Of a stretch of DNA of 64,000 nucleotides, positions 4,321 to 63,233 are shown in pieces; position 1 is the first letter of the stretch, and each line of letters opens with the position of its first letter. The translations under genes were made by a program, and so were the position numbers. A model generated the notes under the pieces. That model saw only the letters and a program-made list of their open reading frames with translations. It did not search any database and was not told the DNA's origin. Source of the DNA: Gemmatimonadota bacterium (GTDB lineage Bacteria; Gemmatimonadota; Gemmatimonadetes; Gemmatimonadales; GWC2-71-9); assembly GCA_022710485.1 (NCBI GenBank), contig JAKLGU010000002.1:2682-66681 (forward strand), in the 5' to 3' direction.

Positions 4321-4454
4321 CCGCGACACCAGCGGTGCCTTTGCCCGGATGAAGGAAGTCTCACCCGCGTTTCTCCCTCGGTTGCCCCCCGATCCCCCAG
4401 CTTATGGAACCGAGCCGCTTTACGTCGCGACAACGAGGCATCGGGGAGGGAGCC

Positions 4455-5120
4455 ATGCTCACCCAATTTCGTGACCGGCGCGAGGCCGGTCAGCACTTGG
4501 CCGGAGCGCTCCGGGTCCCTGCAGGGGCGCCGGTGCGCGTCTTGGCGCTACCCCGGGGCGGCGTCCCGGTGGGGTACGAAGTTGCGCTGGCCCTCGGCGC
4601 ACCGCTGGATGTCTTCGTGGTGCGCAAGCTGGGGGTGCCTGGCCACGAGGAACTGGCCATGGGGGCCATCGCCCAAGGCGGGGTCCGCGTGCTGAACGAG
4701 GACGTCGTCGGGGGGCTGGGAATCCCGGCCGCGACGATCGAGCGGGTGGCAACCGCAGAGGCCGCGGAACTGGCACGACGCGAGCGCATCTATCGCGGCG
4801 GCGCTCCCGCGCCGGACCTCCGGGGTCACACCGTGATACTGGTGGACGACGGCCTCGCGACCGGGGCGACCATGGCCGCCGCGGTCCGTGGGGCGCGTAT
4901 GCAGGCGCCCGGACGGATCATCGTGGCGGTGCCGGTGGCGTCACGAGAAGCGATGCAGGCGCTGGGGGAATTGGCGGACGAATGTGTGGCCGTCCTCACG
5001 CCGCGGTCCTTCGGGGGCGTCGGACAGTGGTATCAGGATTTCAGGCAGACGAGTGACGACGAAGTGAAGACGCTGCTCGACGCCGCCCGGCGTCGCCCGC
5101 CGGTGGCGCCCATCGCCTAG
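4455..5120 (+). CDS. Phosphoribosyltransferase-family protein
   Basis: PRPP-binding loop VILVDDGLATGATM. The internal ATG at 4455 follows GGGGAGGGAGCC, and the N-terminus MLTQFRDRREAGQHLA is typical of this family, so the start is moved from 4404. Confidence 0.75.
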   Translation: MLTQFRDRREAGQHLAGALRVPAGAPVRVLALPRGGVPVGYEVALALGAPLDVFVVRKLGVPGHEELAMGAIAQGGVRVLNEDVVGGLGIPAATIERVATAEAAELARRERIYRGGAPAPDLRGHTVILVDDGLATGATMAAAVRGARMQAPGRIIVAVPVASREAMQALGELADECVAVLTPRSFGGVGQWYQDFRQTSDDEVKTLLDAARRRPPVAPIA

Positions 5121-7666: not shown

Positions 7667-8281
7667 ATGCAGCCGCATGCGCTCCTCCTCGCCGCCGGTA
7701 GCGGATCCCGGTTCGGCAGCAACAAGCTGCTGACCCTCTGGCGCGGCCGCCCCCTGGTAAGCCACCCCATCGCGGCGATCGCCGCCCTCCGTGATCAGGG
7801 CGTCGTGGCCGGCGCCTCCGCCGTCGTCCGGGCGGGCGATCAGCCGGTCATGGACCTCATCCGCCAGGCCGGCCTGCGGGTCGTGGTGAACGCACGGCCC
7901 GAGCTCGGGCTGTCGCACTCACTCCGGCTGGGGCTGGGGTCGCTGGCCGCGCTCACGCCCCAACCGGAAGGCGCCCTCATCTTCCTCGCCGATCAGCCCT
8001 CCGTCCCGCGCGAAGCGGCCGAGGAAGTGATCCGCGCCTGGCAGCTCGGCGGCGGCGCAGTGGTGCGACCACGATACTCCGAGAGTCCGGACGAGCCCGG
8101 ACACCCGGTGCTCCTCGACCGCGACGCCTGGGGGCTCGCCGAGCGGCTGACCGGCGCCCAGGGCCTTGGTCGGGCGCTGTCGAACGCTCCCGAACTCGTG
8201 GTGCATGTGGACGTCGACGGCGCCAATCCCGACGTCGACACCCCCGCCGACCTGTCCCGCCTCGACCCATCGCCTCGATGA
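7667..8281 (+). CDS. MobA/MocA-like molybdenum cofactor nucleotidyltransferase
   Basis: N-terminal LLLAAGSGSRFGSNKLL nucleotidyltransferase loop; about 200 aa. Confidence 0.75.
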   Translation: MQPHALLLAAGSGSRFGSNKLLTLWRGRPLVSHPIAAIAALRDQGVVAGASAVVRAGDQPVMDLIRQAGLRVVVNARPELGLSHSLRLGLGSLAALTPQPEGALIFLADQPSVPREAAEEVIRAWQLGGGAVVRPRYSESPDEPGHPVLLDRDAWGLAERLTGAQGLGRALSNAPELVVHVDVDGANPDVDTPADLSRLDPSPR

Positions 8282-9798
8282 TCTTCGAATTCGGCGGCTC
8301 CCCCGAGCTCGCTTCACCCCGCGAGGCGGTCTGGCGGCACCTGCAGGACGGGGACCTGATGGCGGCCTGCACTCCATCCACGCAGTCGTTCGAGATCCGG
8401 GGACCGGGTCGGTACTCGGTCAAGTGCAGCGTGGGCGCCGGGCTGGTCCGCGCGCACGTGGTCCTGGAGGCCGAGCTCCACGACCTCGTTCATCCAGAGA
8501 GCCTCCGCCTCCGCGCCACCGGAACGGCACCCGGCTCCACCCTCGACGTCGAGACGCTAGTCCGGCTCGAGGCGCTGGGGCCCGAGCGCACGCGCCTCAC
8601 CTGGAGTTCGGTGACCGGCGTGCACGGCATGCTGGCCAAGTTCGGGCGCGGGATGATCGAGGACGTCCTCCGCCAGTTCACCGAACAGTTCTGGACGAAC
8701 GTGGCGGAGCGGGTGGCGGCGGCTCCACGGAGCGGCGCGTATGCACTGACCGCCGCGGAATTGCTCGACCTGCCGCCGGCCACGGTGGACGGGGCGGTGC
8801 TCCTTGCCGGCATCGAGGCAGGCATCCGGTCACTGGCGAAGGGGCACCGCCTGGGCCCGGAGGACGTGGCCGCCGTTCGCGAGGCCGTCGCCTCCGGCGC
8901 GCTCAGCGAGCCGATCCGTCTCGCGTGGGTCGGATCGCATGAGTTGCACGAGGCCGAGGCGGCCGGCATCCTCGCCGCGGCGGCGGCGGGGCCGGGCATC
9001 GCCATCGGCGCCGTGCGTCAGGGGCGCATCGACCTCGTCGCCGCGCGCCGGGGCGTACTGGCGATTTCCCTCGAGGGCATCGAACGGGTCAACGCGATCG
9101 ACCCGCTCGAGCTGTTCACGCGCTGGAATCACCAGCCGGTGGAAGCGGGCGAGGTGGTGGCGAGCGTCAAGGCCGCACCCCACGTTGTGGACCGGGCTGC
9201 CGTCCTGGAGGGCGCCCGGGTGGCTGAGGAGCACACCCCACTGCTCATGGTGCGGCCCTATGCCGGCGTCACGATCGCCGCGGTCGTGGCGGAGCCGCTT
9301 GCGCCCGAGGGCCGGGACCGATTCGCGGGGGCCGCGCGGCTGCGCGCGGAGTCGCTGGATGGGGTGTTCCTCGGAGTGCACGACCTCGACGCCGGCGAGC
9401 CGACCACAGCCGCACGGGACGCGCTCGAGGAACTCGCCCTGCGCCAGCGGGCGGGGGTGCTGCTGATCGGGGGCGTGTCGGCCGGCGACCCTCTGGCGCC
9501 GATCTTCGCGGCGCTCGACGCGCTGGGCGGCGTGGTCTACCGGCGCGGCGTCCCCGCGCATCCAGGGTCCATGCTCTGGCTCGGCCGGCTCGGCGACACC
9601 CAGCTCCTGGGGCTGCCGCGCTGTGGCGCCTTCGGCATGGCCACGGCGGCAGACCTGCTCCTGCCGCGGCTGATGACCGGGGAGACCTTCACGGCGGCAT
9701 CCATCGCCTCCCTCGGCCACGGCGGACTGCTTGGCCGGGAGATGCGGTCCAGGTTTCCGGCGTACGCTCGCGAACTGCCCGATCCGCCCGCCTCTTGA
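8278..9798 (+). CDS. CoxG-like SRPBCC domain fused to a molybdopterin-binding (MoCF_BD-like) domain
   Basis: The N-terminal ~150 aa resemble CoxG (carbon monoxide dehydrogenase subunit G family). The C-terminal part has LLIGGVSAGDPLAP and HPGSMLWLG motifs typical of MoeA/MoCF-binding folds. An ATGA overlap joins it to the upstream gene. Confidence 0.65.
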   Translation: MIFEFGGSPELASPREAVWRHLQDGDLMAACTPSTQSFEIRGPGRYSVKCSVGAGLVRAHVVLEAELHDLVHPESLRLRATGTAPGSTLDVETLVRLEALGPERTRLTWSSVTGVHGMLAKFGRGMIEDVLRQFTEQFWTNVAERVAAAPRSGAYALTAAELLDLPPATVDGAVLLAGIEAGIRSLAKGHRLGPEDVAAVREAVASGALSEPIRLAWVGSHELHEAEAAGILAAAAAGPGIAIGAVRQGRIDLVAARRGVLAISLEGIERVNAIDPLELFTRWNHQPVEAGEVVASVKAAPHVVDRAAVLEGARVAEEHTPLLMVRPYAGVTIAAVVAEPLAPEGRDRFAGAARLRAESLDGVFLGVHDLDAGEPTTAARDALEELALRQRAGVLLIGGVSAGDPLAPIFAALDALGGVVYRRGVPAHPGSMLWLGRLGDTQLLGLPRCGAFGMATAADLLLPRLMTGETFTAASIASLGHGGLLGREMRSRFPAYARELPDPPAS

Positions 9799-16691: not shown

Positions 16692-17708
16692 GTGCGAGCG
16701 CTCCTTGCCGACTACGCCCGGCTGCGGGCGTCGGAGCCTGTCGGGCGCGCGGTGGTCACGTCCGTCTGGGGCTCCGCCCCGCAGGCGGAAGGCGCCACGA
16801 TGCTGGTGTCCGCCAGCGGGAAGATGGCAGGCTCGGTGTCCGGGGGCTGCGTCGAAGCGGCGGTGGCGGAGGAGGTCCGCGCCGCGATGGCGCGCGGAGC
16901 CGCCAAGCTCGTGCGCTACGGCATCTCCGACGAGCGTGCCTGGGAAGTCGGTCTGGCGTGCGGCGGGTCGCTCGAGGTGCTGGTGGAGCCGGCCGTCTCC
17001 GGGCCGGTCCTCGCCGCGGCCGAGGGTCCCGGCGGGGTGGTCATCGCCACCTTTCTCGACGGTGCGGAGCCTGGGCGGAGCGTGTCGATCGACGACTCGA
17101 GCCCGGTCGAGGTGACCGACCTGGTCCGCGCCGCCAGGGAGGCGCTGCGGTCCGGCCGTTCACGGACGGTGCGGCTTCCGGTAGGTGGCACCGATGCCGG
17201 CGCCTTCCTCGAGGTGTTCCCCCGACCCCGGAAGCTGGTGATCTTCGGGGGCGTGCACGTGGCCGCCGCACTGGTCACGCTGGCCCACGCCCTCGACTAC
17301 CGAACCGTCGTAGCCGATGGCCGCGCCAGCTTCCTCACCCGGGAACGATTCCCCGACGCCGACCAGCTGATCCTGGGCTGGCCCGACGAGGCGTTTGCCC
17401 AGGCAGGGATCGATTCGGCGACCGCGGTGGCGGTGCTGACCCACGACCCGAAATTCGACGACCCGGCGCTGATGATCGCGCTCCGCTCCCCGGCGATGTA
17501 CGTGGGCGCCATTGGCTCGAAGAAGACACAGGCGGCCCGGCGCGAGCGGTTGCGCGCCGCGGGGCTGACCGACGATCAGGTGGGGAGGTTGTTCGGGCCG
17601 ATCGGGCTCGACCTCGGCGGACGAACTCCCGCGGAGACGGCCCTGGCCATCATGGCGGAAATCGTGGCGGTGCGCCACGGCGCTGCCGTGGCTCGAACGG
17701 CGGGATGA
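16692..17708 (+). CDS. XdhC/CoxI-family molybdoenzyme maturation protein
   Basis: WGSAPQAEGATMLVSASGKMAGSVSGGCVEAAV (XdhC N-domain) plus a Rossmann-like VIFGGVHVAAAL domain. Confidence 0.75.
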   Translation: MRALLADYARLRASEPVGRAVVTSVWGSAPQAEGATMLVSASGKMAGSVSGGCVEAAVAEEVRAAMARGAAKLVRYGISDERAWEVGLACGGSLEVLVEPAVSGPVLAAAEGPGGVVIATFLDGAEPGRSVSIDDSSPVEVTDLVRAAREALRSGRSRTVRLPVGGTDAGAFLEVFPRPRKLVIFGGVHVAAALVTLAHALDYRTVVADGRASFLTRERFPDADQLILGWPDEAFAQAGIDSATAVAVLTHDPKFDDPALMIALRSPAMYVGAIGSKKTQAARRERLRAAGLTDDQVGRLFGPIGLDLGGRTPAETALAIMAEIVAVRHGAAVARTAG

Positions 17709-34875: not shown

Positions 34876-34947
34876 TGGCGACTGAAGGCGGTAATCTAGC
34901 GGGCCATCGCGTAGACCGCCCGGCCGGTGGGTCGGTATCTTTCCCGA

Positions 34948-36237
34948 ATGACCCAGGCCGCGGTGCGCCCGCTTCTCACCATCCTCCTGCTGGGGACGAT
35001 CGCCGTCGCACCACTCGCCGCTCAGCGCGGCGGGACGGTCGAGATCGTGCCGGTCGGGCGCTACGCCTTCTATCCCGACTCGCTCCAGCTCGAGAATGGA
35101 TTCGGGGTCGGGGGCGAGCTCGGGCTCTTCGTGACCCGGAAGCTCAGCCTCGAGGCGGGTGGGAGCTATGCGCTCACCAGCCTGCCCGATTCGGCCTCGG
35201 TCAGCGTGAGCCGGCTGACCGGCCGCTTCCTGGTCCACCTGCCCTTGCGCGGGCGCTCGACAGCGCTGTTCGGGATTGGATATACGAGCGTTCGTTACGG
35301 GCAGGCACTCGAAGTGGACCAGTCGGGGCCGGGCGGCCTCGTCGGACTGCGCTTCGGGTTCGGCCCCCGCCTGGGTCTCCGCCTGGAGGCGACGGCGGAC
35401 TATGTGGCCCGGACCGGGAGTGGCACCGATCCGGAGTGGGACGTCGGCGCGCAGGTCGGGCTCTCCATATATGCCGGACCGCTCGGCCCGAGGGATAGCG
35501 ATCGCGACGGGGTGCCGAACCGGGAGGACCGGTGCCCGGACACGCCCGCCGGACTGCCGGTCGACCCGACCGGGTGCAACCTCCCCCGCGACTCGGACAA
35601 CGATGGCGTGCTCGACGGCGGTGACCGGTGCCCCGGTACCCCGACCGGGCAGCGGGTGGACATCTCGGGCTGCAACGCCGACCTCGACGGCGACGGCGTG
35701 CCGAACACGCTGGACCGGTGTCCCGGTTCCCCACCCGGAGCGGAAGTCGATCCCTTCGGCTGCCCGCCCCCGCGCCAACCCTCCGACTCCGATGATGATG
35801 GGGTGCCAGACGACCGGGATCGCTGCCCGAGCACCCCCGCCGCCGCTCCGGTGGACGCACTCGGTTGCCCGCAGCCCGTCCAGATGCCGCCGAGTCCTCC
35901 GCGGCTGATCCTTCGCGATGTCACGTTCGCCAACGGGAGTGCGACGCTGACGACGGAGGCGCAGACATCGCTGCGGGGCACCGCGGCCACGCTGCTCACG
36001 GAGCCCGCGGTCCGGCTCGAAGTGGCCGGCTACACCGACTCCACCGGCCCACGCCAGGTGAACGAGCGGCTGTCGCTCCGGCGTGCGGAATCGGTTCGTG
36101 CGTTTCTGGTCTCCGCGGGCATACCGGGCGACCTCCTGACCGCACGTGGCTACGGGCCGGCGGACCCAGTCGCCAGCAACGCCACCTCCGCGGGCCGCGA
36201 ACTCAACAGGCGGGTCGAACTCCACCGCCTCGACTGA
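34948..36237 (+). CDS. OmpA-family outer-membrane protein with thrombospondin type-3 repeats
   Basis: Signal peptide MTQAAVRPLLTILLLGTIAVAPLAAQ, an N-terminal beta-strand region, four DxDxDGVxDxxDxCP repeats, and a C-terminal OmpA domain (VAGYTDSTGPRQVNERLSLRRAESV..NRRVEL). Confidence 0.85.
   Translation: MTQAAVRPLLTILLLGTIAVAPLAAQRGGTVEIVPVGRYAFYPDSLQLENGFGVGGELGLFVTRKLSLEAGGSYALTSLPDSASVSVSRLTGRFLVHLPLRGRSTALFGIGYTSVRYGQALEVDQSGPGGLVGLRFGFGPRLGLRLEATADYVARTGSGTDPEWDVGAQVGLSIYAGPLGPRDSDRDGVPNREDRCPDTPAGLPVDPTGCNLPRDSDNDGVLDGGDRCPGTPTGQRVDISGCNADLDGDGVPNTLDRCPGSPPGAEVDPFGCPPPRQPSDSDDDGVPDDRDRCPSTPAAAPVDALGCPQPVQMPPSPPRLILRDVTFANGSATLTTEAQTSLRGTAATLLTEPAVRLEVAGYTDSTGPRQVNERLSLRRAESVRAFLVSAGIPGDLLTARGYGPADPVASNATSAGRELNRRVELHRLD
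35491..35850 (+). repeat. Four tandem coding repeats (TSP3 calcium-binding motif) inside the OmpA gene
   Basis: DSDRDGVPNREDRCPDTPAG, DSDNDGVLDGGDRCPGTPTG, DLDGDGVPNTLDRCPGSPPG and DSDDDGVPDDRDRCPSTPAA. Confidence 0.75.
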
Positions 36238-36366: not shown

Positions 36367-37572
36367 ATGTCGTTCCTACGACTGGCAGGTGGCGCCCTCG
36401 TCGCATCGACGCTCATGATTTCGCTTCCGACCGACGCCGCGGCCATCCCCGCCTTCGCGCGGAAATACCGGGTCAGCTGCAACCTCTGCCACAACCCCTT
36501 CCCCGCGCTCACCGCGTTCGGTGAGCAGTTTGCCGGCAACGGGTTCCGGATGGCCATCGATGAGGAGCCGCGGGACACGATCGCCACCGGCGACGACCTC
36601 CTGACCCTCCCGGCGAGCGTGCCGCTGGCGCTCCGGCTCGACGCCTACGCGCAACTCTATTCCGACGGCAAGGCGGCCACCGACTTCCAGCTGCCGTTCA
36701 ACCTCAAGCTCCTTTCCGGCGGGACGCTGGGGAAGAAGCTGTCGTACTACATCTACTTCCTGCTGGCGGAGCGGGGCGAGGTGGCGGGCATCGAGGATGC
36801 GTTCGTCTACTGGAACGACATCGCCGGCGCCCCGGTGGACCTGGCGGTCGGGCAGTTCCAGGTGTCGGATCCGATGTTCAAGCGGGAGCTGCGGCTCGAG
36901 GTGCTCGACTACGCGATCTACAAGGTCCTGGTCGGCCTGCAGCCCGCCAACCTGACCTACGACCGCGGCCTCATGGCCTCGGCCGACCTCGCCGGCTTCA
37001 CAATCACCGGGACGCTGGTGAACGGCGACGGGATCCCGGCGGCGAATGAACTGTTCCGCTACGACAACGATGCGAACAAGAACCTGTTCGGCCACATCAC
37101 CCGGGATCTCGGCGACCATGCGCGGCTGGGCCTGATGGGATACACCGGCAGGCAGAACGGCGAGGTGTACGGGTTCCCCGGACAGGACAACGCCATCACG
37201 ATGTGGGGGGCGGACGCCACCTTTGGGGCCGGGCCGGTCCAGCTCAACCTGCAGTACGTCGGCCGGACGGACACCGAGGCGGATTTTGTTCCCGGTCAGC
37301 CGACGGTGGAGACCGACGGCGGGTTCGCGGAAGTGCTCTTCCGGCCCGCCGGCAAGCGGTGGTACGGGTACGGATTGTACAACTATATCGAGGCGAGCGA
37401 GCCGGTGCTCAACGTCAAGATGGGGGTACCGGTCGGGGTGGACGAGTACGAGTCGATCGCCGTCGGTGGCGGGTACCTGGTGTATCGAAACTTTCGGCTG
37501 TACGGCGAGTATGGCTATGACTTCCGCAACGAACTGAACCGGCTCACCGCCGGGTTCACTACGGCATTCTGA
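36367..37572 (+). CDS. Putative fused monoheme cytochrome c / outer-membrane beta-barrel porin (Cyc2/Cyt572-like)
   Basis: Signal peptide, then a single CxxCH (CNLCH, nt 36478-36492) within FARKYRVSCNLCHNPFPALTAFG. About 350 aa with alternating beta-strand character follow, ending in the aromatic OMP terminus ...GFTTAF. A GGGGAGG RBS precedes the ATG. Confidence 0.6.
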   Translation: MSFLRLAGGALVASTLMISLPTDAAAIPAFARKYRVSCNLCHNPFPALTAFGEQFAGNGFRMAIDEEPRDTIATGDDLLTLPASVPLALRLDAYAQLYSDGKAATDFQLPFNLKLLSGGTLGKKLSYYIYFLLAERGEVAGIEDAFVYWNDIAGAPVDLAVGQFQVSDPMFKRELRLEVLDYAIYKVLVGLQPANLTYDRGLMASADLAGFTITGTLVNGDGIPAANELFRYDNDANKNLFGHITRDLGDHARLGLMGYTGRQNGEVYGFPGQDNAITMWGADATFGAGPVQLNLQYVGRTDTEADFVPGQPTVETDGGFAEVLFRPAGKRWYGYGLYNYIEASEPVLNVKMGVPVGVDEYESIAVGGGYLVYRNFRLYGEYGYDFRNELNRLTAGFTTAF

Positions 37573-37583
37573 GGGGAGCGATC

Positions 37584-37979
37584 ATGTCGGCCCAGCGTGG
37601 ATACAGCGCAGCGTTGGCGCTACTCCTGTGCGGCGCCGCAGGCAGCGTCCAGGCACAGGCGAACGCCGCCCTCCCGGAGGGGGTGACTCCCGCCATGGTT
37701 AGTGCGGGCGGCTCGATCTTCAAGGGGCCGGGGATGTGCACCGTCTGCCACGGCATCGACGGCAAGGGCGGCGTCGGACCGAACCTGACCGACGGCACCT
37801 GGATCCACTCCAAGGGCAGCTATCAGGAAATCGTCCAGCAGATCACTACGGGCGTTCCCACCAAGCAGTCCAAGAGCGGCATCCCGATGCCGCCGAAGGG
37901 CGGGAGCGGGATCAGCGAGGCGCAAGTCAAGGACGTTGCGGCGTACGTCTGGACGCTGAGCCACCCGGGGGCGAAGTAG
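37584..37979 (+). CDS. Periplasmic monoheme class I cytochrome c
   Basis: Signal peptide, CTVCH (nt 37737-37751), a distal Met ligand region GIPMPP, and 131 aa in total. It starts 11 nt after the Cyc2-like gene. Confidence 0.85.
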   Translation: MSAQRGYSAALALLLCGAAGSVQAQANAALPEGVTPAMVSAGGSIFKGPGMCTVCHGIDGKGGVGPNLTDGTWIHSKGSYQEIVQQITTGVPTKQSKSGIPMPPKGGSGISEAQVKDVAAYVWTLSHPGAK

Positions 37980-37981
37980 GC

Positions 37982-39145
37982 CTATCTCACCTGCCGGCGC
38001 GTCGCGTGCCAGAGCGAGGCGCCGAGCGCCAGGGCCAGGATGCCGAGGGCAGACGGCCAGTAGGGGGCGCGCCGAGGATCAGGGTACCCCGCATCCTTCA
38101 ATTGCCTGCGCAGTTCCAGTCCATACCACTCACCCAGTGACATTCCGGCGGTGGCGGCAAATGCCTCGGCGACTGGAGCAGTGCTCGTCCAGAATTCGGC
38201 GAAGCGGGTTGGGCCGAGGTCGTCCACCATCAAGGCGAGCAACGCCCCCGTGACATAGCGCGGCATCTCGAACATCCAGGCGCCGTTTCCCTGCCCAGCA
38301 TACCCGAGGAAACGCCACCCCCCCACCACACCCGCCGGAAACTGGCCCGGAGGATACGGCGTCTGGAGGAAGCCAGCCTCACAGAGTTCCGGGCGACGAT
38401 CCGCGCACGCCGCGAGCGCTACTGACTCCCTGTAGAAGAGCCCCCGCAGGTCACCGAATACCCGGTTGAGGACCCCACCGCGCTCCGGGTCATCTTCTCG
38501 CGACGCGAAGAACCGTCGATAGGGCGGAATGCCGCCCGCGACGTCCCAGTACCGGGAATCGAGCCATGCCCGAATCCCGGGGCCCGGCATCCCAAACTCC
38601 GACAGGTACCAACAAGCGCCAACAGCGCCATTCCAGGGCAGCCGTCGCCAGTCCTCAGCCCAGAACCGATTCAAGACGGTGTCGCCGGGAGAAGGGGTGT
38701 GGACCACCGTGCACCACCCCCCTGCCTCGGCGCCGGGCAACACCGTGAACGAAGTGAGCGTCCCGCGAGGAAGCCATTCCCCTGGCGGCCATTCCAACAG
38801 GACCAACCGCGTCGGAACTGCCGGATCCGTCCGCCGCGGAACCGACACGAAGAGGCTCTCAGCCACTCTCATCGCAGCGGTTTGGGTGCCAAGGGTGATC
38901 ACGGCCTGGTCCGCACCGGCCGGTTGACTCTTCACCGCAGAATCCACCCGATCGAGCACCGCCGCGGTGCCAACATGACGTCCCAGACGGATCACCGAGT
39001 CTCTCAGCGCCTGCTCGGCTGCCAGCTCAGGACTCGAAGGCCGCGGCGTTCGATCGAGGCCCGGGGTTGGACCGAGAAGGGACCACAAGGCGAGACAGGC
39101 GACCGCCGCCGTAAGAAAGCCAAGGACCCGATTGCTCACCGCCAT
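37982..39145 (-). CDS. Hypothetical bitopic protein (N- and C-terminal TM helices, ~330-aa exported domain)
   Basis: ATG 39145 overlaps the upstream stop by 10 nt. It has an N-terminal helix VLGFLTAAVACLALWSLL and a C-terminal helix ALGILALALGASLW followed by a basic tail. It is Trp/Cys-rich with no recognised motif. Confidence 0.6.
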   Translation of the reverse strand: MAVSNRVLGFLTAAVACLALWSLLGPTPGLDRTPRPSSPELAAEQALRDSVIRLGRHVGTAAVLDRVDSAVKSQPAGADQAVITLGTQTAAMRVAESLFVSVPRRTDPAVPTRLVLLEWPPGEWLPRGTLTSFTVLPGAEAGGWCTVVHTPSPGDTVLNRFWAEDWRRLPWNGAVGACWYLSEFGMPGPGIRAWLDSRYWDVAGGIPPYRRFFASREDDPERGGVLNRVFGDLRGLFYRESVALAACADRRPELCEAGFLQTPYPPGQFPAGVVGGWRFLGYAGQGNGAWMFEMPRYVTGALLALMVDDLGPTRFAEFWTSTAPVAEAFAATAGMSLGEWYGLELRRQLKDAGYPDPRRAPYWPSALGILALALGASLWHATRRQVR

Positions 39146-40161
39146 CGCGAACCTCGCAGTGCCATCGTAAGCAGGAGCCCGGACCATGCGAGTCCGAGCA
39201 ACAGTTCCTGCGGAGGCGCGGCCGGACCGCGTGGGACAGCCCGAAGGCTCGCACCCCAACGATTGAGCAGTGTGTCAATGGGGACGCCGGCGGCCGCGGC
39301 GAGACGATGCTCGAGGGTGACGCCGGTGTCCGCAGCGAGCCGCTCGAACGCCGAGGCGCCACCTGACTCGAACGCCAGCTGCACCAGGTACTGCCGACCT
39401 ACAACACCAACAGGCGGAAGGACGCGCGCCGGGGTCAAGATCGACCGGCATGCCGACAGGTCGCCCGCGTTCATGCAGCGCTCGCGCGCGACCCGCTCGA
39501 GCCCGTTCAATTCCCCGGACACCATGCCGGCGAGGCGCGGCCAGGTATCTGGCTCGAACCACGCATCGAGCGTATCCGCCCCAACGTGAATGCCCAGCGC
39601 TGCCGCGCATGCCATCGTCTCGCCCGAATAGCATGCCCGGTTCGGCCGCGCCGGTGTTCGCAGGAGTTCCTCCGCGATGTCACCTACGTCGGAATGCGAG
39701 ATGGTCCCGGTGGGCACGGTGCCTCCCATCCAACGAAGCACGGCGGCACCCTGCGTGCTCCAGATCCACAGAGCGGCGCTCCGCTCGAGCCCGCGCGCAA
39801 GGTCCCCAGCCTTGGCCAGCTTCGGGACGGTACTCCTGGTGGATCCGAAGGTGGTGACCGGGAAGGCCCCGTGCGCCGTCACCGACGGACCGAATCGAGC
39901 CACCAGGCTCTGCCACGCTTCCTCACCGGCGGCCAGGGCAAACGGTCGGAGCCGTGCAGAGGTGGCGATCCGGAGTCCGCCCGCCACCACGGTGTCAGAG
40001 TACTTGGCCCGGAGCGCCAGGCTGTCCCGCAGCGCCCTGGCCAGTTGCATCGAGTCGAGTCGTTCCTCCATCCGCTGCAGCACCGCCGCCGGTTCCTGCG
40101 CGTGAAGCGACCCGCCCCAGGGGGCGAGCAGGGCGAGCAAGGCGAGACGCCGCCTACACAT
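39136..40161 (-). CDS. Hypothetical secreted protein with a C-terminal TM anchor
   Basis: Signal peptide MCRRRLALLALLAPWGGSLHAQ and a C-terminal LLLGLAWSGLLLTMALRGSRWR. ATG 40161 overlaps the upstream stop by 8 nt. Confidence 0.6.
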   Translation of the reverse strand: MCRRRLALLALLAPWGGSLHAQEPAAVLQRMEERLDSMQLARALRDSLALRAKYSDTVVAGGLRIATSARLRPFALAAGEEAWQSLVARFGPSVTAHGAFPVTTFGSTRSTVPKLAKAGDLARGLERSAALWIWSTQGAAVLRWMGGTVPTGTISHSDVGDIAEELLRTPARPNRACYSGETMACAAALGIHVGADTLDAWFEPDTWPRLAGMVSGELNGLERVARERCMNAGDLSACRSILTPARVLPPVGVVGRQYLVQLAFESGGASAFERLAADTGVTLEHRLAAAAGVPIDTLLNRWGASLRAVPRGPAAPPQELLLGLAWSGLLLTMALRGSRWR

Positions 40162-40807
40162 CGATGAGCATCCAGCGCGCCCGAAAGATGGCCAGCGGGC
40201 TGTAGGGGCCGAGCAGCGCATCCACAACTGAGCCGAGCGGATTCCACCCCAGTGAGGCGAGGTCGGCGACGAGTGCGGCGAGGACCACCAGCAGGAACAC
40301 CGCCGCGACCAGCCGCGCCATGCGCGGCGTGAGTCCCATCAACCCGAACAGGATGGTGTACGCCGAGAGCCCGGCGAGAAGGAAGCGGACAGTGATCCCC
40401 CCCGGATAGGCGTGGAGCAGGGTGGGGAGAGGCACTCGGATCGTGGCGACGACCGTGCTCACGGCAAGGACAGCCGCGATGACAAACAGCAGCGTCAGGC
40501 CGGCGCCGTACCGGAGCAGCAGGTAACGGACCCGTGAAACGGGAAGCGTAAGCGCATAAACATGCTTGGTCCGGTGATCCGGCCACCAGGCCCCCGCAGC
40601 CAGCGCCAGCGCGGCCGCCAAGGCGAGAACTGGATAGGCGGCGCCCCATCGCGCCGTGGCGCGAAGCAGGTCCCAGGAGGCCCAAGGATCGGTGACTGCG
40701 CCGGCGCCGCGGAGAGACAAGAGGGGCACAGCCACCGCCATTCCGGCCAGCACTACCATTGCAAGGCGACTCTCGCGCCACTGACTCCAGAGGATGGCCC
40801 GAAACAT
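40154..40807 (-). CDS. ABC-2-type membrane protein (permease partner of the adjacent ATPase)
   Basis: About 6 hydrophobic segments. ATG 40807 shares 1 nt with the ATPase stop (TGATG). The gene order is typical of GntR(YtrA)-ABC operons. Confidence 0.6.
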   Translation of the reverse strand: MFRAILWSQWRESRLAMVVLAGMAVAVPLLSLRGAGAVTDPWASWDLLRATARWGAAYPVLALAAALALAAGAWWPDHRTKHVYALTLPVSRVRYLLLRYGAGLTLLFVIAAVLAVSTVVATIRVPLPTLLHAYPGGITVRFLLAGLSAYTILFGLMGLTPRMARLVAAVFLLVVLAALVADLASLGWNPLGSVVDALLGPYSPLAIFRARWMLIDV

Positions 40808-41703
40808 CACGCCTCCCGTCCGCTGGGGTGACGCGCGCTGCGCAGGAGCTCCACGAACGCCTCCTCGAGGTCGAGATCCACGACTTCCCTGAGCGGATGC
40901 GCCTCGCCGAACCAGGACGCCATGTCCGGCTGCCAGCCACGCACCGTCCACACCTCCCCTCCGATGCCCGCCGCGCCGCGCGCCAGCAGCGCGAAGGGCG
41001 CGCCGGCCGAGGGCGCACCGGCGCCCACCCGAAGGCGCTTCAGGCCCGACTTGAACTCCTGCATCGGCAACTGGGCCACGATGGTGCCCTGGTCGAGCAC
41101 GCCGATCCAGTCGCAGAACCGCTCGAGTTCGTGAACCAGGTGGCTCGAGATGAGCACGGTGGCGCCGGACTCGGTCACATAATCGAGGATGGCGTGGAGG
41201 GCCTCGCGCCGGACCACCGGATCGAGTCCGTCGGTCGGCTCGTCGAGCACCAGGAGATCGGGCCGCTGAGCCAGCGCCAGCAGGATCATGACCTTGCCCA
41301 TCTCGCCCTTGGACAGCCGGGCAAGGGCACGCTTCATCGGCAACTCGAAGCGGGCCGCGAGGTCCCTGGAGGCCGCCTGGTCATACCGGGGATGGAACGC
41401 GGCATGGAACCGGATCGCTTCGTCGATCGAAAGGTTCGGGTAGAGCTGCGGCCGCTCGGGGACATATCCGACCCGGCCGAGGATCGAGACGATGTCCTTC
41501 GGCACGTCCTCGCCGAAGACTTTCATCGACCCGCCGGCGGGGCGCAGCAGCCCGAGAAGCAGCCGGATCGTGGTGGTCTTCCCCGCCCCGTTGGGGCCGA
41601 GGAAGCCGTACACCGCGCCGCTGGGTACGGAGAGGTTCACGTCGCGAAGCGCGAATCCACCCACCTGGTAGGACAGCCCGCGGATCTGGATCGCATCGGT
41701 CAT
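40807..41703 (-). CDS. ABC transporter ATP-binding protein
   Basis: Walker A GPNGAGKTT, signature LSKGEMGKV, Walker B LLVLDEPTDGLD, and H-loop SSH. Confidence 0.9.
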   Translation of the reverse strand: MTDAIQIRGLSYQVGGFALRDVNLSVPSGAVYGFLGPNGAGKTTTIRLLLGLLRPAGGSMKVFGEDVPKDIVSILGRVGYVPERPQLYPNLSIDEAIRFHAAFHPRYDQAASRDLAARFELPMKRALARLSKGEMGKVMILLALAQRPDLLVLDEPTDGLDPVVRREALHAILDYVTESGATVLISSHLVHELERFCDWIGVLDQGTIVAQLPMQEFKSGLKRLRVGAGAPSAGAPFALLARGAAGIGGEVWTVRGWQPDMASWFGEAHPLREVVDLDLEEAFVELLRSARHPSGREA

Positions 41704-42080
41704 CGCCGTTTCTCCCCCAGCGCTGTTCGAAGCGCGTTGAGCAGGTCCTCTCCAGACAATCCCAGCCCGACGGCCCGCGCCAGCATTTCGTTGGCCAGGC
41801 GGCTGCTGACCGCCGACTGCTCCGCCGCGCGCCGGCTCGGCGTCAGCTCGCGCACGTAGGTTCCGGAGCCCTGCCGCAGTTCGACGAGCCCTGCCGTCTC
41901 GAGGTCCCGGTACGCCTGCACCACGGTGCCCGGGTTCAGCCGGAGGCGGACCGCCAGCTGCCGCACCGACGGGAGCAACTCGCCGGGCGCGAGGTCACCC
42001 GCCGCGATGGCGGCGCGGAGCCGCTCCGCGAGCTGGGCGTACAGGGGTGTCGGCGACGCAGGATCGAGGTGTTCGAACAT
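41700..42080 (-). CDS. GntR-family (YtrA-like, short) transcriptional regulator
   Basis: PLYAQLAERLRAAIAAGDLAPGELLPSVRQLAVRLRLNPGTVVQAYRDLE winged-helix domain with a short C-terminal extension. ATG 42080 is preferred over TTG 42104. Confidence 0.85.
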   Translation of the reverse strand: MFEHLDPASPTPLYAQLAERLRAAIAAGDLAPGELLPSVRQLAVRLRLNPGTVVQAYRDLETAGLVELRQGSGTYVRELTPSRRAAEQSAVSSRLANEMLARAVGLGLSGEDLLNALRTALGEKRR

Positions 42081-42085
42081 GGCCC

Positions 42086-42111
42086 TAGTGTGTTGGTGTT
42101 GCAATACACTA
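42086..42111. promoter_or_regulatory. Inverted repeat TAGTGT-N14-ACACTA immediately upstream of the gntR start (putative operator)
   Basis: TAGTGT is at 42086-42091 and ACACTA at 42106-42111. This is the most AT-rich stretch of the divergent gntR/sigma intergenic region and sits 5 nt from ATG 42080. Confidence 0.4.
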
Positions 42112-59167: not shown

Positions 59168-59515
59168 TCAGGCCGCCGGGTGTAGCAGGCGCAGGTACGA
59201 GAAGAGCAGCAGCAGCGCCACGATGAGGACGGCGGCGATGATGAGCGGGAAGACGAACAGCCCGCTGAAGATCTTGCTGTCCTGCTTCAGGTGCATGTAG
59301 AACATGGCGACGAGCGCGAACTTGGCGGCCGAGAGGATGATCAGGATCTCATTGAGCAGCGGTTGCACGAGTTCATGCAGCGGCATGCTGGGCCGGTGGG
59401 AGACCTCGAACGCCAGCACCTCGAGTGCGGTCATCACGAAGAGGATGACGGCGACCCGCAGGTAGAGCGCGGGCCCTGGATGGGCGTGTTCGTGCGTGGC
59501 GACTTGGGCGTCCAT
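59168..59515 (-). CDS. Cytochrome c oxidase subunit IV (caa3-type small subunit)
   Basis: 115 aa with three hydrophobic helices and the motif ILSAAKFALVAMFYMHLK. It lies directly downstream of subunit III. Confidence 0.7.
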   Translation of the reverse strand: MDAQVATHEHAHPGPALYLRVAVILFVMTALEVLAFEVSHRPSMPLHELVQPLLNEILIILSAAKFALVAMFYMHLKQDSKIFSGLFVFPLIIAAVLIVALLLLFSYLRLLHPAA

Positions 59516-59520
59516 GCCGA

Positions 59521-60207
59521 TCACCTCATCAGGTAGACGACGGGGAAGATCACGATCCAGACGACGTCCACGAAGTGCCAGTAGAGCGCGGCGATCTCGA
59601 GGTTGAGCGACTTCTCCGGCGGCACCTTGCCCCGGATGGCGAGGACGAGCATCGTCGCGAGCCAGATGACGCCGAGCGTGACGTGGGTGCCGTGGAAGCC
59701 CGTCAGGGTGTAGAACGACGACCCGAAGAGGTTCGTGGTGTAGCCGAGCCCCTTGTGGTAGAAGTGGTAGAACTCGTACACCTGCATGCCGATGAAGAAG
59801 AGGCCGCAGACGACCGTGGCCGAGAGCCAGCCGATCAGCTTCTTGCGGTTGCCCTGCTGGGCGCCGTTGAGTGCCAGCACGACGAAGAAGGAGCTGAAGA
59901 GGAGCACCGCGGTGCCGAAGGTGACCAGCGGGATCTCGAAGATCGGCTCGCAGGTGGTCATCTGGCCGTGCAGCATGCACTGCGAGGTCTCGTGCGGGAG
60001 CGGCCCGACGAGGCTCTCCCCCTTGTAGACGAGGTAGTTCGAGATCAGCGTCGCGAAAAACAGGCATTCCGACCCGATGAAGGTCCAGATGGCCAGCTTC
60101 CGGGTGTCGAGCCCGGTGGCCGTCGGGGGATGCAACGCGTGTGCGGTGTCGTGCGCCAAGGGACCGTCCGTCTCAGTCGTGAGTGGTCTAGTGGTCCGCG
60201 GGCTCAA
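59521..60207 (-). CDS. ctaE: Cytochrome c oxidase subunit III
   Basis: WTFIGSECLFFATLIS..FYTLTGFHGTHVTLGVIWL..ALYWHFVDVVWI. The start is uncertain: TTG 60207 overlaps the ctaD end by 20 nt. Confidence 0.85.
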   Translation of the reverse strand: MSPRTTRPLTTETDGPLAHDTAHALHPPTATGLDTRKLAIWTFIGSECLFFATLISNYLVYKGESLVGPLPHETSQCMLHGQMTTCEPIFEIPLVTFGTAVLLFSSFFVVLALNGAQQGNRKKLIGWLSATVVCGLFFIGMQVYEFYHFYHKGLGYTTNLFGSSFYTLTGFHGTHVTLGVIWLATMLVLAIRGKVPPEKSLNLEIAALYWHFVDVVWIVIFPVVYLMR

Positions 60208-62020
60208 ACGCCCACGAGAAGATGCCGAGCATGGTGATCGCGACGCCGAGCAGGATGACCCAGAGCGTGACGTGCATCAGGAAGCCGACCAGCGTCAGGG
60301 CGGTCCCGAAGGCGGTCACGATCGGCCAGTAGGAGGGGCTGGGAAGGTGGATCCCCTTGCCGCTCACCCGGGCCGGTTCCGGCAGGGTCCCGCCGCGCGC
60401 GCGTCGGAGCTCCCAGAGAGGATCCCGGCCGTCCACAGTCGGCTCCACCGCGAAGTTCCACTCCTGCGGCGGCGAGGGGATGGACCACTCCAGCGTGGCG
60501 CCGTGCCACGGGTCCGCCGTGGCCACCTCGCCGCTCTTGAGCGACTTCAGGATGTTCCAGATGAAGATGAGGAACGAGAAGCCGAGGATCAGGGAGCCGG
60601 CGGTCTCGACGGCGTTCCAGAACTCGAAGCCCATGCCGGCGGAGTAGGTGTACACGCGGCGCGGCATCCCGTTGAGGCCGAGGATGTGCATCGGGGCGAA
60701 CGTCAGGTTGAAGCCCAGGAACATGAGCCAGAAGTGCACCTTGCCGAGCGACTCGCTCAGCATCCGGCCGGTCATCTTGGGGAACCAGTAGTAGGCGCCG
60801 GCCGTCAGCGCGAAGATGCTGCCGCCGAAGAGCACGTAATGGAAGTGCGCCACGATGAAATAGCTGTCGGTCTGCTGCAGGTCGGCCGGCGGCGAGGCGT
60901 GCATGACGCCGGAGAGGCCGCCGATGATGAACATCGCCACGAACCCGAGGGCGAAGTACATCGGGGTCTTGTACTGGATGGACCCGCCCCAGACGGTGCC
61001 GATCCAGTTGAAGATCTTCACGCCGGTCGGGATGGCGATCAGCATGGTGCCGAGCGAGAACACCGTGTCCGCCATCGGGCCCATGCCGGTGGAGAACATG
61101 TGGTGGCTCCACACCCCGAAGCCGAGGAAGGCGATGAAGCACCCCGAGAAGACCATGGCGGCGTAGCCGAAGAGCGGCTTCCGCGAGAACACCGGCAGGA
61201 TCTCGGAGACGACGCCGAAGGCCGGGAGGATCAGGATGTACACCTCGGGATGGCCGAACAGCCAGAAGAGGTGCTGCCAGAGGACCGGGTCGCCGCCGCC
61301 GGACGGGACGAAGAAGTGGGTGCCGAAGCTCCGATCGAGCATGAGCAGCACCAGCGCGACGGTGATGATCGGGAAGGCCAGCAACAGCAGCACCTGGGTG
61401 ATCAGGCTCATCCAGACGAACATCGGCATGCGCATCATCTTCATGCCGGGCGCGCGCAAGTTGATGATCGTCACGAAGAAGTTCACCGCCGCGGCCAGCG
61501 AGGCGATGCCCAGGATCTGGAGGCCGATGATCCAGAAGTCGACGTTGAGCCCGGGGCTGAACTGCTTCGAGGTGAGGTTGGCGTAGGCGAACCAGCCCAT
61601 GTCCGGCGCGGCGTTGAACAGGAAGCTGGAATTGAGCACCAGCCCGCCGAAGAGGAACACCCAGTAGCTGTAGGCGTTGAGCCGCGGGAAGGCGACGTCC
61701 CGCGCGCCGATGAGCAGCGGGATGAAGTAGTTGAAGAACATCGCCGAGAGCGGCATCACCCCGAGGAAGATCATCGTGGTGCCGTGCATCGTGAACAGCT
61801 GGTTGTACGCCTCGGGAGAGAGGAAGGTCTTGTCCGGCGCCCCGAGCTGCCAGCGGATCAGCAGCGCCTCGAGTCCGCCAAGGAGGAAGAACAGGAAGGC
61901 GGTGACGCCGTAGAGGATCCCGATCCGCTTGTGGTCTACGGTCGTGATCCAGCTCCAGAGCCCCTTCTTCTCGGCGGGAGCCGCCTCTGCCCCGGCGTGC
62001 CCCATCGCAATCGTGGACAT
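60188..62020 (-). CDS. ctaD: Cytochrome c oxidase subunit I
   Basis: Heme-copper oxidase motifs WFFGHPEVYILILP-like (LFWLFGHPEVYILILPAFG), HHMF and VAHFHYVL. Confidence 0.95.
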   Translation of the reverse strand: MSTIAMGHAGAEAAPAEKKGLWSWITTVDHKRIGILYGVTAFLFFLLGGLEALLIRWQLGAPDKTFLSPEAYNQLFTMHGTTMIFLGVMPLSAMFFNYFIPLLIGARDVAFPRLNAYSYWVFLFGGLVLNSSFLFNAAPDMGWFAYANLTSKQFSPGLNVDFWIIGLQILGIASLAAAVNFFVTIINLRAPGMKMMRMPMFVWMSLITQVLLLLAFPIITVALVLLMLDRSFGTHFFVPSGGGDPVLWQHLFWLFGHPEVYILILPAFGVVSEILPVFSRKPLFGYAAMVFSGCFIAFLGFGVWSHHMFSTGMGPMADTVFSLGTMLIAIPTGVKIFNWIGTVWGGSIQYKTPMYFALGFVAMFIIGGLSGVMHASPPADLQQTDSYFIVAHFHYVLFGGSIFALTAGAYYWFPKMTGRMLSESLGKVHFWLMFLGFNLTFAPMHILGLNGMPRRVYTYSAGMGFEFWNAVETAGSLILGFSFLIFIWNILKSLKSGEVATADPWHGATLEWSIPSPPQEWNFAVEPTVDGRDPLWELRRARGGTLPEPARVSGKGIHLPSPSYWPIVTAFGTALTLVGFLMHVTLWVILLGVAITMLGIFSWAFEPADH

Positions 62021-62034
62021 CGGGTACCCTCTCG

Positions 62035-63150
62035 TCAGTTGCCGGCGGCGGTCATGGCGACCGCCCCCGGCGCAGGCACGACGCTGAGCGACCGGAGGTA
62101 CGCTACCAGCGCGGTGGTTTCTTCATCGGTGAGCCCGAGGTTCGGCATGAGCACCCCCACCTTCACCGCCTGGGGGTTCTTCAGCCACCGCGTCAGGTTC
62201 TCGTCGGTGTTGGGCAGCCACCCGGAGGCGATGGTGGTGCGGCTGCCCACCCCGGCCAGGTTGGGCCCGACCATCGTCGGGGCCCCCACCGCGGTGACGG
62301 CGTGGCACCCCACGCACGCCTTCGCGGCAAAGAGCTGCTGGCCCTGCGCCACGAGCGGATCCACCGCCGTGGCGGCCGCCGAGTCGGCGGGCGCCGGCGC
62401 AGCCACCGGCGCGCTGACCGCCGCGAGCCCCTCCCGCCAGGCCACGAACGCGGCGGAGTCCTGCGCCACCACCTGGAACGCCATCCGGGCGTGCTGCGTG
62501 CCGCAGAACTCGGCGCACTGCCCCGGATAGACCCCGGCAGTCTCGGTCCTGAACCAGAGCCGGTTGTCCCGGCCGGGGAAGACGTCCCGCTTGCCGGCGA
62601 GCTGCGGGGTCCAGAAGCTGTGCACCACGTCGCCGGTGGTCATGCGAAGGTCCACCGTCCTGCCGGTGGGCACGTGCATGTCTCCCGCCGTGACGAGGTT
62701 GTACTCGGGGTACCGGAACTCCCACCACCACTGGTGCCCGGTCACCTCGATCACGAGGGGATTGTCGGTCGGCACCTCGGCCGTCTTGAAGATCGTTTGG
62801 ATGGTGGGGATGGCGATGAAGACGAGAATCACGGCCGGGATGACGGTCCAGACCACCTCGAGCATCGCGTTCCCGTGGGTCTGCGCCGGCTCGGCGTCTC
62901 CCGGCTTGCCGCGGTAGCGGAAGAGCGCCCAGATGAGCACCCCTTCCACCAGGAAGAAGACGATAGTGGCCAGCTGGAAGGACCGGCGGAACACCTGGTC
63001 GAGCAGTTCCGCGAAATCCGCCTTGGGAGCCAGCGTGGTCTGCGGATACCCGTCCGGAGCGCACCCGGCCAGGGCGAGCACGGCCAGGGTGAAGCACAGC
63101 GCGGGCACCCACCGGACGACACGCCGGAGGGAGGGGAGCCTGAGGGCCAT
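62035..63150 (-). CDS. ctaC: Cytochrome c oxidase subunit II with a fused C-terminal cytochrome c domain (caa3 type)
   Basis: Lipoprotein-like signal LAVLALAGC, CuA site HSFW..CAEFCGTQHARM, and C-terminal heme motif CVGCH. ATG 63150 is preferred over TTG 63195. Confidence 0.9.
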   Translation of the reverse strand: MALRLPSLRRVVRWVPALCFTLAVLALAGCAPDGYPQTTLAPKADFAELLDQVFRRSFQLATIVFFLVEGVLIWALFRYRGKPGDAEPAQTHGNAMLEVVWTVIPAVILVFIAIPTIQTIFKTAEVPTDNPLVIEVTGHQWWWEFRYPEYNLVTAGDMHVPTGRTVDLRMTTGDVVHSFWTPQLAGKRDVFPGRDNRLWFRTETAGVYPGQCAEFCGTQHARMAFQVVAQDSAAFVAWREGLAAVSAPVAAPAPADSAAATAVDPLVAQGQQLFAAKACVGCHAVTAVGAPTMVGPNLAGVGSRTTIASGWLPNTDENLTRWLKNPQAVKVGVLMPNLGLTDEETTALVAYLRSLSVVPAPGAVAMTAAGN

Positions 63151-63172
63151 TCCGTTCGTCCTGTTCAGCGAT

Positions 63173-63233
63173 AAATGCGGGAGAAGAGCGGCCAAGCAGC
63201 CCGCATTTTACCGTCCAGAAGCCCCCGCGTCAA
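63173..63233 (-). promoter_or_regulatory. Near-consensus promoter TTGACG-N17-TAAAAT for the cta operon, overlapping a 9-bp inverted repeat
   Basis: On the minus strand the -35 is at 63233-63228 and the -10 at 63210-63205. The inverted repeat is AAATGCGGG (63173-63181) and CCCGCATTT (63200-63208) with an 18-nt spacer. The -10 overlaps the upstream arm. Confidence 0.55.

Follow-up and report, generated by a model that had tools for sequence, protein, structure and literature searches.

Does a gene pair that carries the recognition features of the cytochrome-porin Cyc2 make its Gemmatimonadales host an iron oxidizer? No genetic marker of microbial Fe(II) oxidation is in wider use than Cyc2, which is routinely called in metagenome-assembled genomes (MAGs) of phyla never shown to oxidize iron. 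The pair considered here lies in a stretch of 64 kb from a Gemmatimonadales MAG (contig JAKLGU010000002.1; this whole stretch is referred to below as the window) and consists of two open reading frames (ORFs) on the plus strand. The combined evidence of the reading frame itself, coding bias, motifs, profile alignment with hhalign, and a structural model leaves us confident that ORF1 (36367..37572, +; 401 amino acids, aa) encodes a Cyc2-superfamily fused monoheme cytochrome-porin from a Gemmatimonadota clade of ~400-aa proteins and that it has a partner cytochrome. ORF2 (37584..37979, +; 131 aa) was assigned by its Pfam matches and gene position as a secreted monoheme class-I cytochrome c, the putative periplasmic electron acceptor or shuttle.

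The gene pair and its host

The initial annotation had called these two genes, the second starting 11 nt downstream of the first, and both were recovered at these positions with a strong coding signature. At a window GC content of 70%, the GC content of third codon positions (GC3) is 0.89 in ORF1 and 0.88 in ORF2, and that of second codon positions (GC2) is 0.43 in ORF1. The genes share the same orientation, and a ribosome-binding site of the GGAGG or GGGGAG type precedes each of them. Since a 129-nt gap separates ORF1 from the upstream OmpA-family gene and a convergent gene ends 2 nt beyond ORF2, the pair constitutes a compact two-gene unit; a scan for promoters and terminators around it yielded nothing useful. 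Genuine CXXCH motifs in coding frames are limited to three in the entire 64 kb, namely those of ORF1, ORF2, and the cytochrome c domain of CoxB. The ORF1 product is 100% identical to an NCBI entry named "hypothetical protein [Gemmatimonadales bacterium]" and 97% identical to a protein from a Microflora Danica Gemmatimonadales MAG, and the window proteins match Gemmatimonadales MAGs. Its host is a member of the Gemmatimonadales from soil or sludge and is neutrophilic.

Cyc2-type features of ORF1

None of the Pfam and NCBIfam models matches ORF1, and we therefore applied the published recognition rules for the Cyc2 family, which comprise a signal peptide, one CXXCH, a length of at least 365 aa, and a 16-strand porin (Keffer et al., 2021; PMC8406198). 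The same study describes the motif AXPXFAR[Q/K][T/Y] just before the CXXCH, stated to be unique to Cyc2, and a PXL motif four residues after it. The N-terminus of ORF1, MSFLRLAGGALVASTLMISLPTDAAA|IPAFARKYRVSCNLCHNPFPAL, contains one Arg, a hydrophobic core (Kyte-Doolittle hydropathy of 1.91 for residues 9-20), and an AAA cleavage-type site. Sequence reading and hydropathy place the signal peptide at residues 1-26 (36367..36444, +), with predicted cleavage at AAA|IPAF; this junction aligns with the AWA|LPSFARQ junction of Acidithiobacillus Cyc2, and the predicted mature protein starts with IPAFARKYRVSCNLCHNPFPALTAFGEQFAGNGF. The heme c domain that follows (residues 27-65; 36445..36561, +) was delineated by its match to the Cyc2 motifs and reads AIPAFARKY-RVS-CNLCH-NPF-PAL-TAFGEQFAGNGF. 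A regular-expression search identified AIPAFARKY, followed by RVS and CNLCH, as the motif described as unique to Cyc2, and the PXL motif is present as H42-N-P-F-P46-A-L48. The length of 401 aa lies above the published minimum, and the predicted barrel is a 16-strand, OprO/OprP-like porin.

The sole CXXCH of ORF1, C38-N-L-C41-H42 (residues 38-42; 36478..36492, +), is located near the N-terminus and begins 11 residues past the putative cleavage site, in line with the signal peptide and the single heme c site ~12 residues after cleavage that had originally been proposed. C38, C41, and H42 are invariant across 152 aligned heme-bearing homologs, and a CXXCH falls within the first 90 residues in 154 of 155 full-length homologs; the motif is thus not a chance occurrence, and the conservation on which its interpretation as a heme site had been made to depend was confirmed. 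The residues P28, F30, R32, C38, C41, H42, and P46 are conserved at 99-100% in the aligned homologs (P46 at 100%), and L48 is conserved at 97%.

Homology to experimentally validated Cyc2 proteins was also detected. A rusticyanin query identical to PDB entry 1CUR was used to fetch the rus operons of Acidithiobacillus, from which six Cyc2 orthologs were extracted. BLASTP aligned ORF1 with these six proteins over the heme domain only (41-44% identity, ~43 residues). The 152-sequence family profile matched them in hhalign with 98.5% probability (E 2.5e-14) in global mode and 97.9% in local mode (columns 7-140), and the N-terminal domain alone matched Cyc2 of A. ferrooxidans with 98.7% probability (E 2.8e-16); only the ~55-aa heme domain and the first strands contribute to the signal. 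A degenerate DNA pattern for FARQTG..C..CH retrieved at least 120 further loci, among them Zetaproteobacteria, Mariprofundaceae, Sideroxydans, Gallionella, and Chlorobiota, and the ORF1-family hidden Markov model (HMM) matched all 93 complete FARQTG-type Cyc2 proteins from the listed loci, at 30-88 bits. Proxy HMMs were then derived from two barrel-similarity groups, one of 20 Cluster-1-like and one of 75 Cluster-2-like sequences, the group with Zetaproteobacteria, Gallionella, and Sideroxydans being taken as Cluster 1 and the group with Acidithiobacillus as Cluster 2. They score ORF1 at 48.7 bits (Cluster-1-like) and 43.2 bits (Cluster-2-like), and ORF1 is their sole match among 346 six-frame ORF segments in the window. 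The Cyc2-like character first suggested by the fusion of one heme site to a porin is therefore backed by every published sequence and fold rule and by profile homology to Cyc2 from rus operons, Zetaproteobacteria, Gallionella, and Sideroxydans.

The porin barrel and its L3-like loop

An AlphaFold2 model of ORF1, built from a 52-sequence alignment, has the fold of a porin barrel, with a predicted local distance difference test (pLDDT) value of 77 and a predicted template-modeling (pTM) score of 0.76. DSSP strand assignment in this model and Foldseek matches place the barrel at residues 88-401 (36628..37569, +), with ~16 strands and a C-terminal Phe; the count is 16 when residues 104-108 and 111-120 are taken as one kinked strand. 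Foldseek matches of the model in the PDB include OmpT (1.3e-13), OprP (2o4v; 1.5e-12, rank 2), and OprO (4rjx; 1.5e-11, rank 5), and the remaining top matches are also 16-strand porins. For Cyc2 PV-1, the reported templates are likewise OprP and OprO (Keffer et al., 2021; PMC8406198), both of which rank within the top five here. ORF1 ends in GFTTAF, and a terminal Phe is kept in 93% of the homologs, in agreement with the outer-membrane barrel that had been anticipated from the same C-terminal residue. PDB sequence searches with ORF1 and with Acidithiobacillus Cyc2 returned no match, and no solved Cyc2 structure was reachable by sequence.

Between strands 5 and 6, model position and sliding-window conservation define a long L3-like loop (residues 162-197, GQFQVSDPMFKRELRL...DYAIY; 36850..36957, +). 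Its first segment, GQFQVSDPMFKRELRL (residues 162-177), is the most conserved of the clade, reaching a sliding-window value of 0.89 across the 152 homologs, above that of the heme motif. The genome scan described below picked SDP[MLI]FKREL and RLE.xDYA[IV]Y as the most conserved patterns. In the model, the GQFQVSDPMFKRELRL loop sits where the constriction loop L3 lies in classical porins, and the conserved loop may contact the heme domain or line the pore.

ORF2 and the recurrence of a downstream cytochrome c

The ORF2 product has a signal peptide ending in VQA|Q and one CXXCH, C52-T-V-C55-H56 (37737..37751, +). It scores above the Pfam cutoff for PF13442 (Cytochrome_CBB3) and PF00034 (Cytochrom_C), and its nearest solved relatives are CcoP heme domains. 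Two other assignments were rejected, namely cytochrome 579 of Leptospirillum (NCBIfam NF033864; 26.9 bits versus a cutoff of 280) and a diheme c4-type Cyc1, given that ORF2 has one CXXCH in 131 aa.

The gene order OmpA-ORF1-ORF2 is syntenic in close relatives, which is uninformative at that distance. At loci of clade members with 51-60% identity, a small same-strand ORF for a monoheme cytochrome c starts within 400 nt downstream in 31 of 65 cases and upstream in none of 61, and the downstream partners are monoheme in all 31 cases. Clustering of the neighbors at ~70 loci revealed cytochrome c as the most recurrent (26 loci), followed by histidine kinases (20) and response regulators (17). The partner cytochrome is kept at two loci with entirely different flanks (L014 and L015), and there is none at two others (L016 and L017). 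This directional recurrence bears out the initial description of ORF2 as a dedicated cytochrome c. Among proteobacterial-type Cyc2 loci, 38 of 87 have a small cytochrome downstream, and 31 of these 38 cytochromes are diheme, which is the known cyc2-cyc1 arrangement. The recurrence in both locus sets indicates that a Cyc2 gene followed by a periplasmic cytochrome c gene is a habit of the family, realized in a monoheme version in this clade.

Several clade loci display further arrangements. In a 57%-identical relative (L014, 6001-13190), two genes for small cytochromes c follow the cyc2-like gene, and this unit is convergent with genes for a Rieske protein, a cytochrome b with a c domain, and multiheme-like proteins, a gene order that suggests a link to a bc-type complex. 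The loci L016 (6001-13191) and L017 have an opposite-strand rhodanese gene, and large multi-cupredoxin (Copper-bind) proteins are encoded ~4 kb downstream; these cupredoxins may be an alternative periplasmic acceptor. One ORF2 homolog (L192, 6891-7343) has a lipobox (…VFAACGGG…), and some ORF2 homologs are predicted to be membrane-anchored lipoproteins, in contrast to ORF2 with its signal-peptidase I site.

Distribution and motif variation of the clade

Homologs of ORF1 at E ≤ 1e-3 number 4111 among the scored candidates. An exhaustive search of representatives gave 1925 clusters (50% identity) at the same threshold and 101 at E ≤ 1e-30. A genome scan with the family alignment detected relatives in at least 593 species-level genomes; the best 80 of these are all Gemmatimonadota, with 51-97% identity and lengths of about 385-410 aa. 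More distant full-length relatives (28-48% identity) include proteins from Kapaibacteria and KSB1 MAGs, and a homology search started from one distant member (P0245) yielded hardly any organism names. A search for a cultured carrier with a Gemmatimonas-affiliated homolog returned only "hypothetical" proteins from MAGs and metagenomes and no named culture.

ORF1 reads FARKY, and 94 of the 155 full-length homologs (P0033-P0120 and others) have FARRY or a similar sequence instead of FAR[Q/K][T/Y], so that these 94 fail the strict filter of the published tree. The Gemmatimonadota clade is probably under-represented in the published Cyc2 tree. A second, longer Cyc2 of the FARQTG type is encoded in Gemmatimonadales or Gemmatimonadota MAGs at L050 (~3015-4905, -; 453 aa) and L078 (~1830-3200, +; 461 aa), and the Gemmatimonadota thus contain at least two different Cyc2 lineages. 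Cyc2 homologs in Gemmatimonadota and other heterotrophic phyla have been repeatedly reported from FeGenie-type screens (PMC9769843, PMC11316326, PMC13055281), and MAGs of the naming series used in the marine Gemmatimonadota study (M3-44_Bin_129, M8-32_Bin_184, and others) are among the clade loci. The presence of Cyc2 in Gemmatimonadota is already known, and ORF1 adds no new kind of system; the points of interest are modest and comprise the distinct barrel, the FARRY motif that escapes strict filters, the very conserved L3-like loop, and the monoheme partner.

Comparison with known systems

Cyc2 of A. ferrooxidans (rus operon, Cluster 2) and ORF1 have in common the signal peptide, a lone CXXCH ~11 residues into the mature protein, PxFAR[Q/K][T/Y] before and PxL after it, the fused porin barrel, and a cytochrome c gene directly downstream; the heme domains are 41-44% identical and match at 98% in profile comparison. 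In contrast, the Acidithiobacillus proteins have 484-516 aa versus 401 aa in ORF1, the similarity of the barrels is undetectable to marginal (1-42%), and the partner is the diheme c4 cytochrome Cyc1 rather than the 131-aa monoheme ORF2. Unlike the rus operon, the ORF1 operon is without rusticyanin and oxidase genes, and its host is neutrophilic rather than acidophilic.

The Cyc2 proteins of Cluster 1 (Mariprofundus Cyc2 PV-1, Gallionellaceae, Sideroxydans, and Chlorobium) share with ORF1 the architecture, the motif, a similar size (379-460 aa), and a predicted 16-strand OprO/OprP-like porin, and the proxy HMM match of 48.7 bits extends over the heme domain and the first strands (HMM positions 6-128). 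They differ in that the barrel-only match is weak (22.5%, E 9e-4) and the ORF1 hosts are not known iron oxidizers. The motif is FARKY in ORF1 and FARRY in most of the clade versus FARQTG in the Cluster-1-like set, which was itself retrieved by the FARQTG pattern. Cyt572 of Leptospirillum (Cluster 3) belongs to the same fused cytochrome-porin family according to the literature. Cyt572 has an unusual heme and a long branch, and the function of Cluster 3 is the most uncertain (Keffer et al., 2021; PMC8406198).

Solute porins such as OprP/OprO, OmpT, OmpU, and OmpC have the barrel fold of ORF1 (Foldseek E 1e-13 to 1e-11, template-modeling score 0.5-0.7) and a long loop at the L3 position, but OprP/OprO and the general porins are without the N-terminal heme domain and are only 12-15% identical to ORF1. 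The MtoAB, PioAB, and MtrCAB systems are similar in outline, as electrons cross the outer membrane via a heme protein inside a barrel; they consist of a separate decaheme cytochrome in a barrel of ~26 strands, whereas ORF1 has one fused heme site and 16 strands. Assignment of the locus to an MtoAB/PioAB/MtrAB complex was rejected in view of the single fused heme motif, the 16-strand barrel, and the lack of an adjacent multiheme gene.

The terminal oxidase and the wider gene neighborhood

The genes of a caa3-type oxidase (59521..63195, -) were identified by Pfam matches to COX2, COX2_TM, Cytochrom_C, COX1, and COX3. They encode CoxB, a COX2 protein fused to a cytochrome c domain (62035-63195, -), CoxA (COX1; 60188-62020, -), and CoxC (COX3; 59521-60207, -). 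This operon had been placed at 59168-63150, 21 kb from the pair, and taken to complete an electron transport chain. The oxidase is indeed present and its position was approximately right, but no link between the two loci emerged; the operon lies 21 kb off, and the scanned genes in between, which encode a GntR regulator, ABC transporters, a protein kinase, a dehydrogenase, and a peptidase, are unrelated to the oxidase. We therefore rejected the operon as a sign of a dedicated chain, and the caa3 enzyme is the ordinary aerobic oxidase expected of the organism, genetically unlinked to the pair. CoxA has 610 aa, and its C-terminal tail, which may be a fused subunit, has a weak likeness to subunit IV of cytochrome c oxidase (24.8 bits, just below the cutoff).

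Immediately around the pair lie genes for transporters of the AI-2E and EamA types and for an OmpA/thrombospondin-repeat protein, as well as a GntR-ABC operon that includes two conserved hypothetical proteins. The outer-membrane protein encoded at 34927-36237 (+) combines, alongside four calcium-binding thrombospondin type-3 repeats, a small beta-barrel (OMP_b-brl) at the N-terminus and an OmpA peptidoglycan-binding domain at the C-terminus; its gene is directly upstream of ORF1 in close relatives only. The two conserved hypothetical proteins (37982-39259, - and 39136-40227, -; called at 425 and 363 aa) match no Pfam or NCBIfam model and are hydrophobic at their termini, and the start of the first is probably over-called because the two genes overlap by 124 nt. 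Both are syntenic in relatives (40-58% identity) and lie downstream of a set of genes for a GntR regulator, an ABC ATPase, and a membrane protein (40154-42104, -).

The rest of the window is devoted to arginine biosynthesis, PHB proteins, HMG-CoA reductase, phosphate transport, and restriction-modification. At the window edge (42-4320, +), an ORF for an Eco57I/MmeI-type N6 DNA methylase overlaps a SNF2/helicase-C ORF, resembling a type IIG/ISP-like restriction-modification or defense module. Genes for MobA-like, CoxG, and XdhC/CoxI proteins (7667-9798, + and 16692-17708, +) are accessory genes of a molybdenum hydroxylase of the CO dehydrogenase or xanthine dehydrogenase type, whose catalytic subunits were not seen in the window.

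Possible Fe(II) oxidation and alternative functions

As the best explanation of the whole we modestly favor a Cyc2-type conduit with ORF2 as its shuttle, Fe(II) as the donor, and the respiratory chain as the sink. After removal of the Sec signal peptide, heme c would be attached at C38 and C41, with H42 as the proximal ligand, in a short N-terminal domain, and the remaining ~315 residues would form a 16-strand barrel in the outer membrane that holds the heme domain in or at the pore. At the cell surface, the single heme of ORF1 would accept electrons from a dissolved donor outside the cell, most likely Fe(II). ORF2, presumably co-transcribed and probably translationally coupled, would be a soluble periplasmic cytochrome c that takes electrons from the ORF1 heme and passes them to the respiratory chain, where the caa3 cytochrome c domain is the most plausible acceptor. 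The choice of Fe(II) as the likeliest substrate follows by analogy, because all three biochemically tested family members (A. ferrooxidans Cyc2, Cyt572, and Cyc2 PV-1) oxidize Fe(II) (Keffer et al., 2021; PMC8406198). A passage of the same study adds that one heme inside a narrow porin is suited to a small donor in solution, such as Fe2+. On this analogy, Fe(II) oxidation feeding respiration is quite possibly the physiological job of the pair, although we stop just short of calling it probable.

A number of observations weigh against an iron-oxidase function. All matches of the ORF1 family to Cyc2 are carried by the heme domain and the first two to three strands, and the HMM alignments end at approximately position 150. 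Barrel-only hhalign comparisons gave 1% probability against the six Acidithiobacillus proteins, 42% (E 2.7e-4, 296 colinear columns) against the 75-member Cluster-2-like set, and 22.5% (E 9e-4, 287 columns) against the 20-member Cluster-1-like set, and thus the profile comparisons did not detect full-length, barrel-included relatedness to Cluster 1 or Cluster 2. The porin part of Cyc2 is poorly conserved (Keffer et al., 2021; PMC8406198), and membership in the family is therefore compatible with the weak barrel match; the designation iron oxidase, however, is one that we infer, since the barrel places ORF1 in neither of the better-validated clusters. Keffer et al. (2021; PMC8406198) regard function as the most uncertain outside Cluster 1 and allow for further roles of Cyc2. 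Of the 16-strand barrel with the heme plugged inside that had been envisaged, the barrel was predicted, but the heme domain of the model is poorly supported (pLDDT 33-65), and its place in the pore is not fixed by the model. The aligned homologs contain no universally conserved second Met or His as a distal heme ligand. The gene pair is conserved in part, as about half of the clade loci are without an adjacent cytochrome. The 64-kb window holds no other iron-specific gene, its content being ordinary heterotroph housekeeping. Finally, hundreds of Gemmatimonadota species genomes regarded as heterotrophs carry the gene, and for this reason it does not look like a specialized lithotrophic trait.

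The same Cyc2-type machine could instead be a general trans-outer-membrane conduit in an aerobic heterotroph, without energy-conserving Fe(II) oxidation, an explanation that we judge to be a serious, if less probable, alternative. The possible roles would include surface Fe(II) detoxification or pre-oxidation, electron exchange with further soluble redox species (Mn, humics, or flavins), electron exit, bidirectional electron flow, and external redox sensing. The spread of the clade over at least 593 species-level genomes, with the best 80 all from Gemmatimonadota, would suit such a conduit, as would the heterotrophic housekeeping content of the window, the histidine kinases and response regulators that recur at 17-20 of ~70 loci, and a barrel that falls outside Clusters 1 and 2. 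The additional Cyc2 functions allowed by Keffer et al. (PMC8406198) and the statement of the marine Gemmatimonadota study that annotation cannot separate oxidation from reduction point the same way. In contrast, Fe(II) oxidation by every biochemically tested member and the suitability of a single heme in a narrow porin for an Fe2+-like donor, as put in that passage of the family study, argue for iron, and the high-potential class-I cytochrome c partner together with the bc-type complex near the pair in the relative L014 fits inward electron flow.

A bolder version of the conduit explanation can be offered only tentatively and is rather unlikely in its entirety. It holds that the FAR(R/K)Y proteins of ~400 aa represent a separate, Gemmatimonadota-wide Cyc2 lineage, under-sampled in the published trees because their filter rejects FARRY, which would serve as a housekeeping trans-outer-membrane conduit of aerobic soil heterotrophs and not as a lithotrophic iron oxidase. 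This putative lineage would be characterized by a barrel without demonstrable homology to Clusters 1 or 2, the conserved L3-like loop, and a monoheme, sometimes lipoprotein, partner.

It is improbable that ORF1 is mainly a solute porin, either OprP/OprO-like or of the general diffusion type, in which the heme/Cys motif acts as a plug or stabilizer and ORF2 is a mere neighbor. Ordinary diffusion porins with 16 strands give the best structural matches, Pfam Porin_4 or Porin_O_P is recorded for some homologs, one homolog is labeled "predicted porin" by JGI, and the L3-like loop rather than the heme motif is the most conserved segment; however, the aligned homologs show little or no variation in the CXXCH and in the Cyc2-specific motif that flanks it, and the directional pairing with cytochrome c (31 of 65 versus 0 of 61) is hard to explain for a solute porin. 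Many long spurious ORFs arise in high-GC windows, but an artifact from a chance motif or a spurious ORF can be dismissed for ORF1 in view of its 4111 homologs among the scored candidates, the 1925 clusters at 50% identity, its GC3 of 0.89 and GC2 of 0.43, the conserved motif, and the confident barrel model.

Implications for Cyc2 as a marker of iron oxidation

This locus is a clean example of the marker problem, as ORF1 follows all recognition rules, its barrel lies outside the validated clusters, and the hosts are abundant soil and sludge heterotrophs. The two-gene unit of a heme porin and a monoheme cytochrome c is small enough for heterologous testing. Should the Gemmatimonadota clade oxidize Fe(II), iron cycling has a contributor in a very common soil phylum; otherwise, the inventories of "iron oxidizers" that are based on this marker are inflated.

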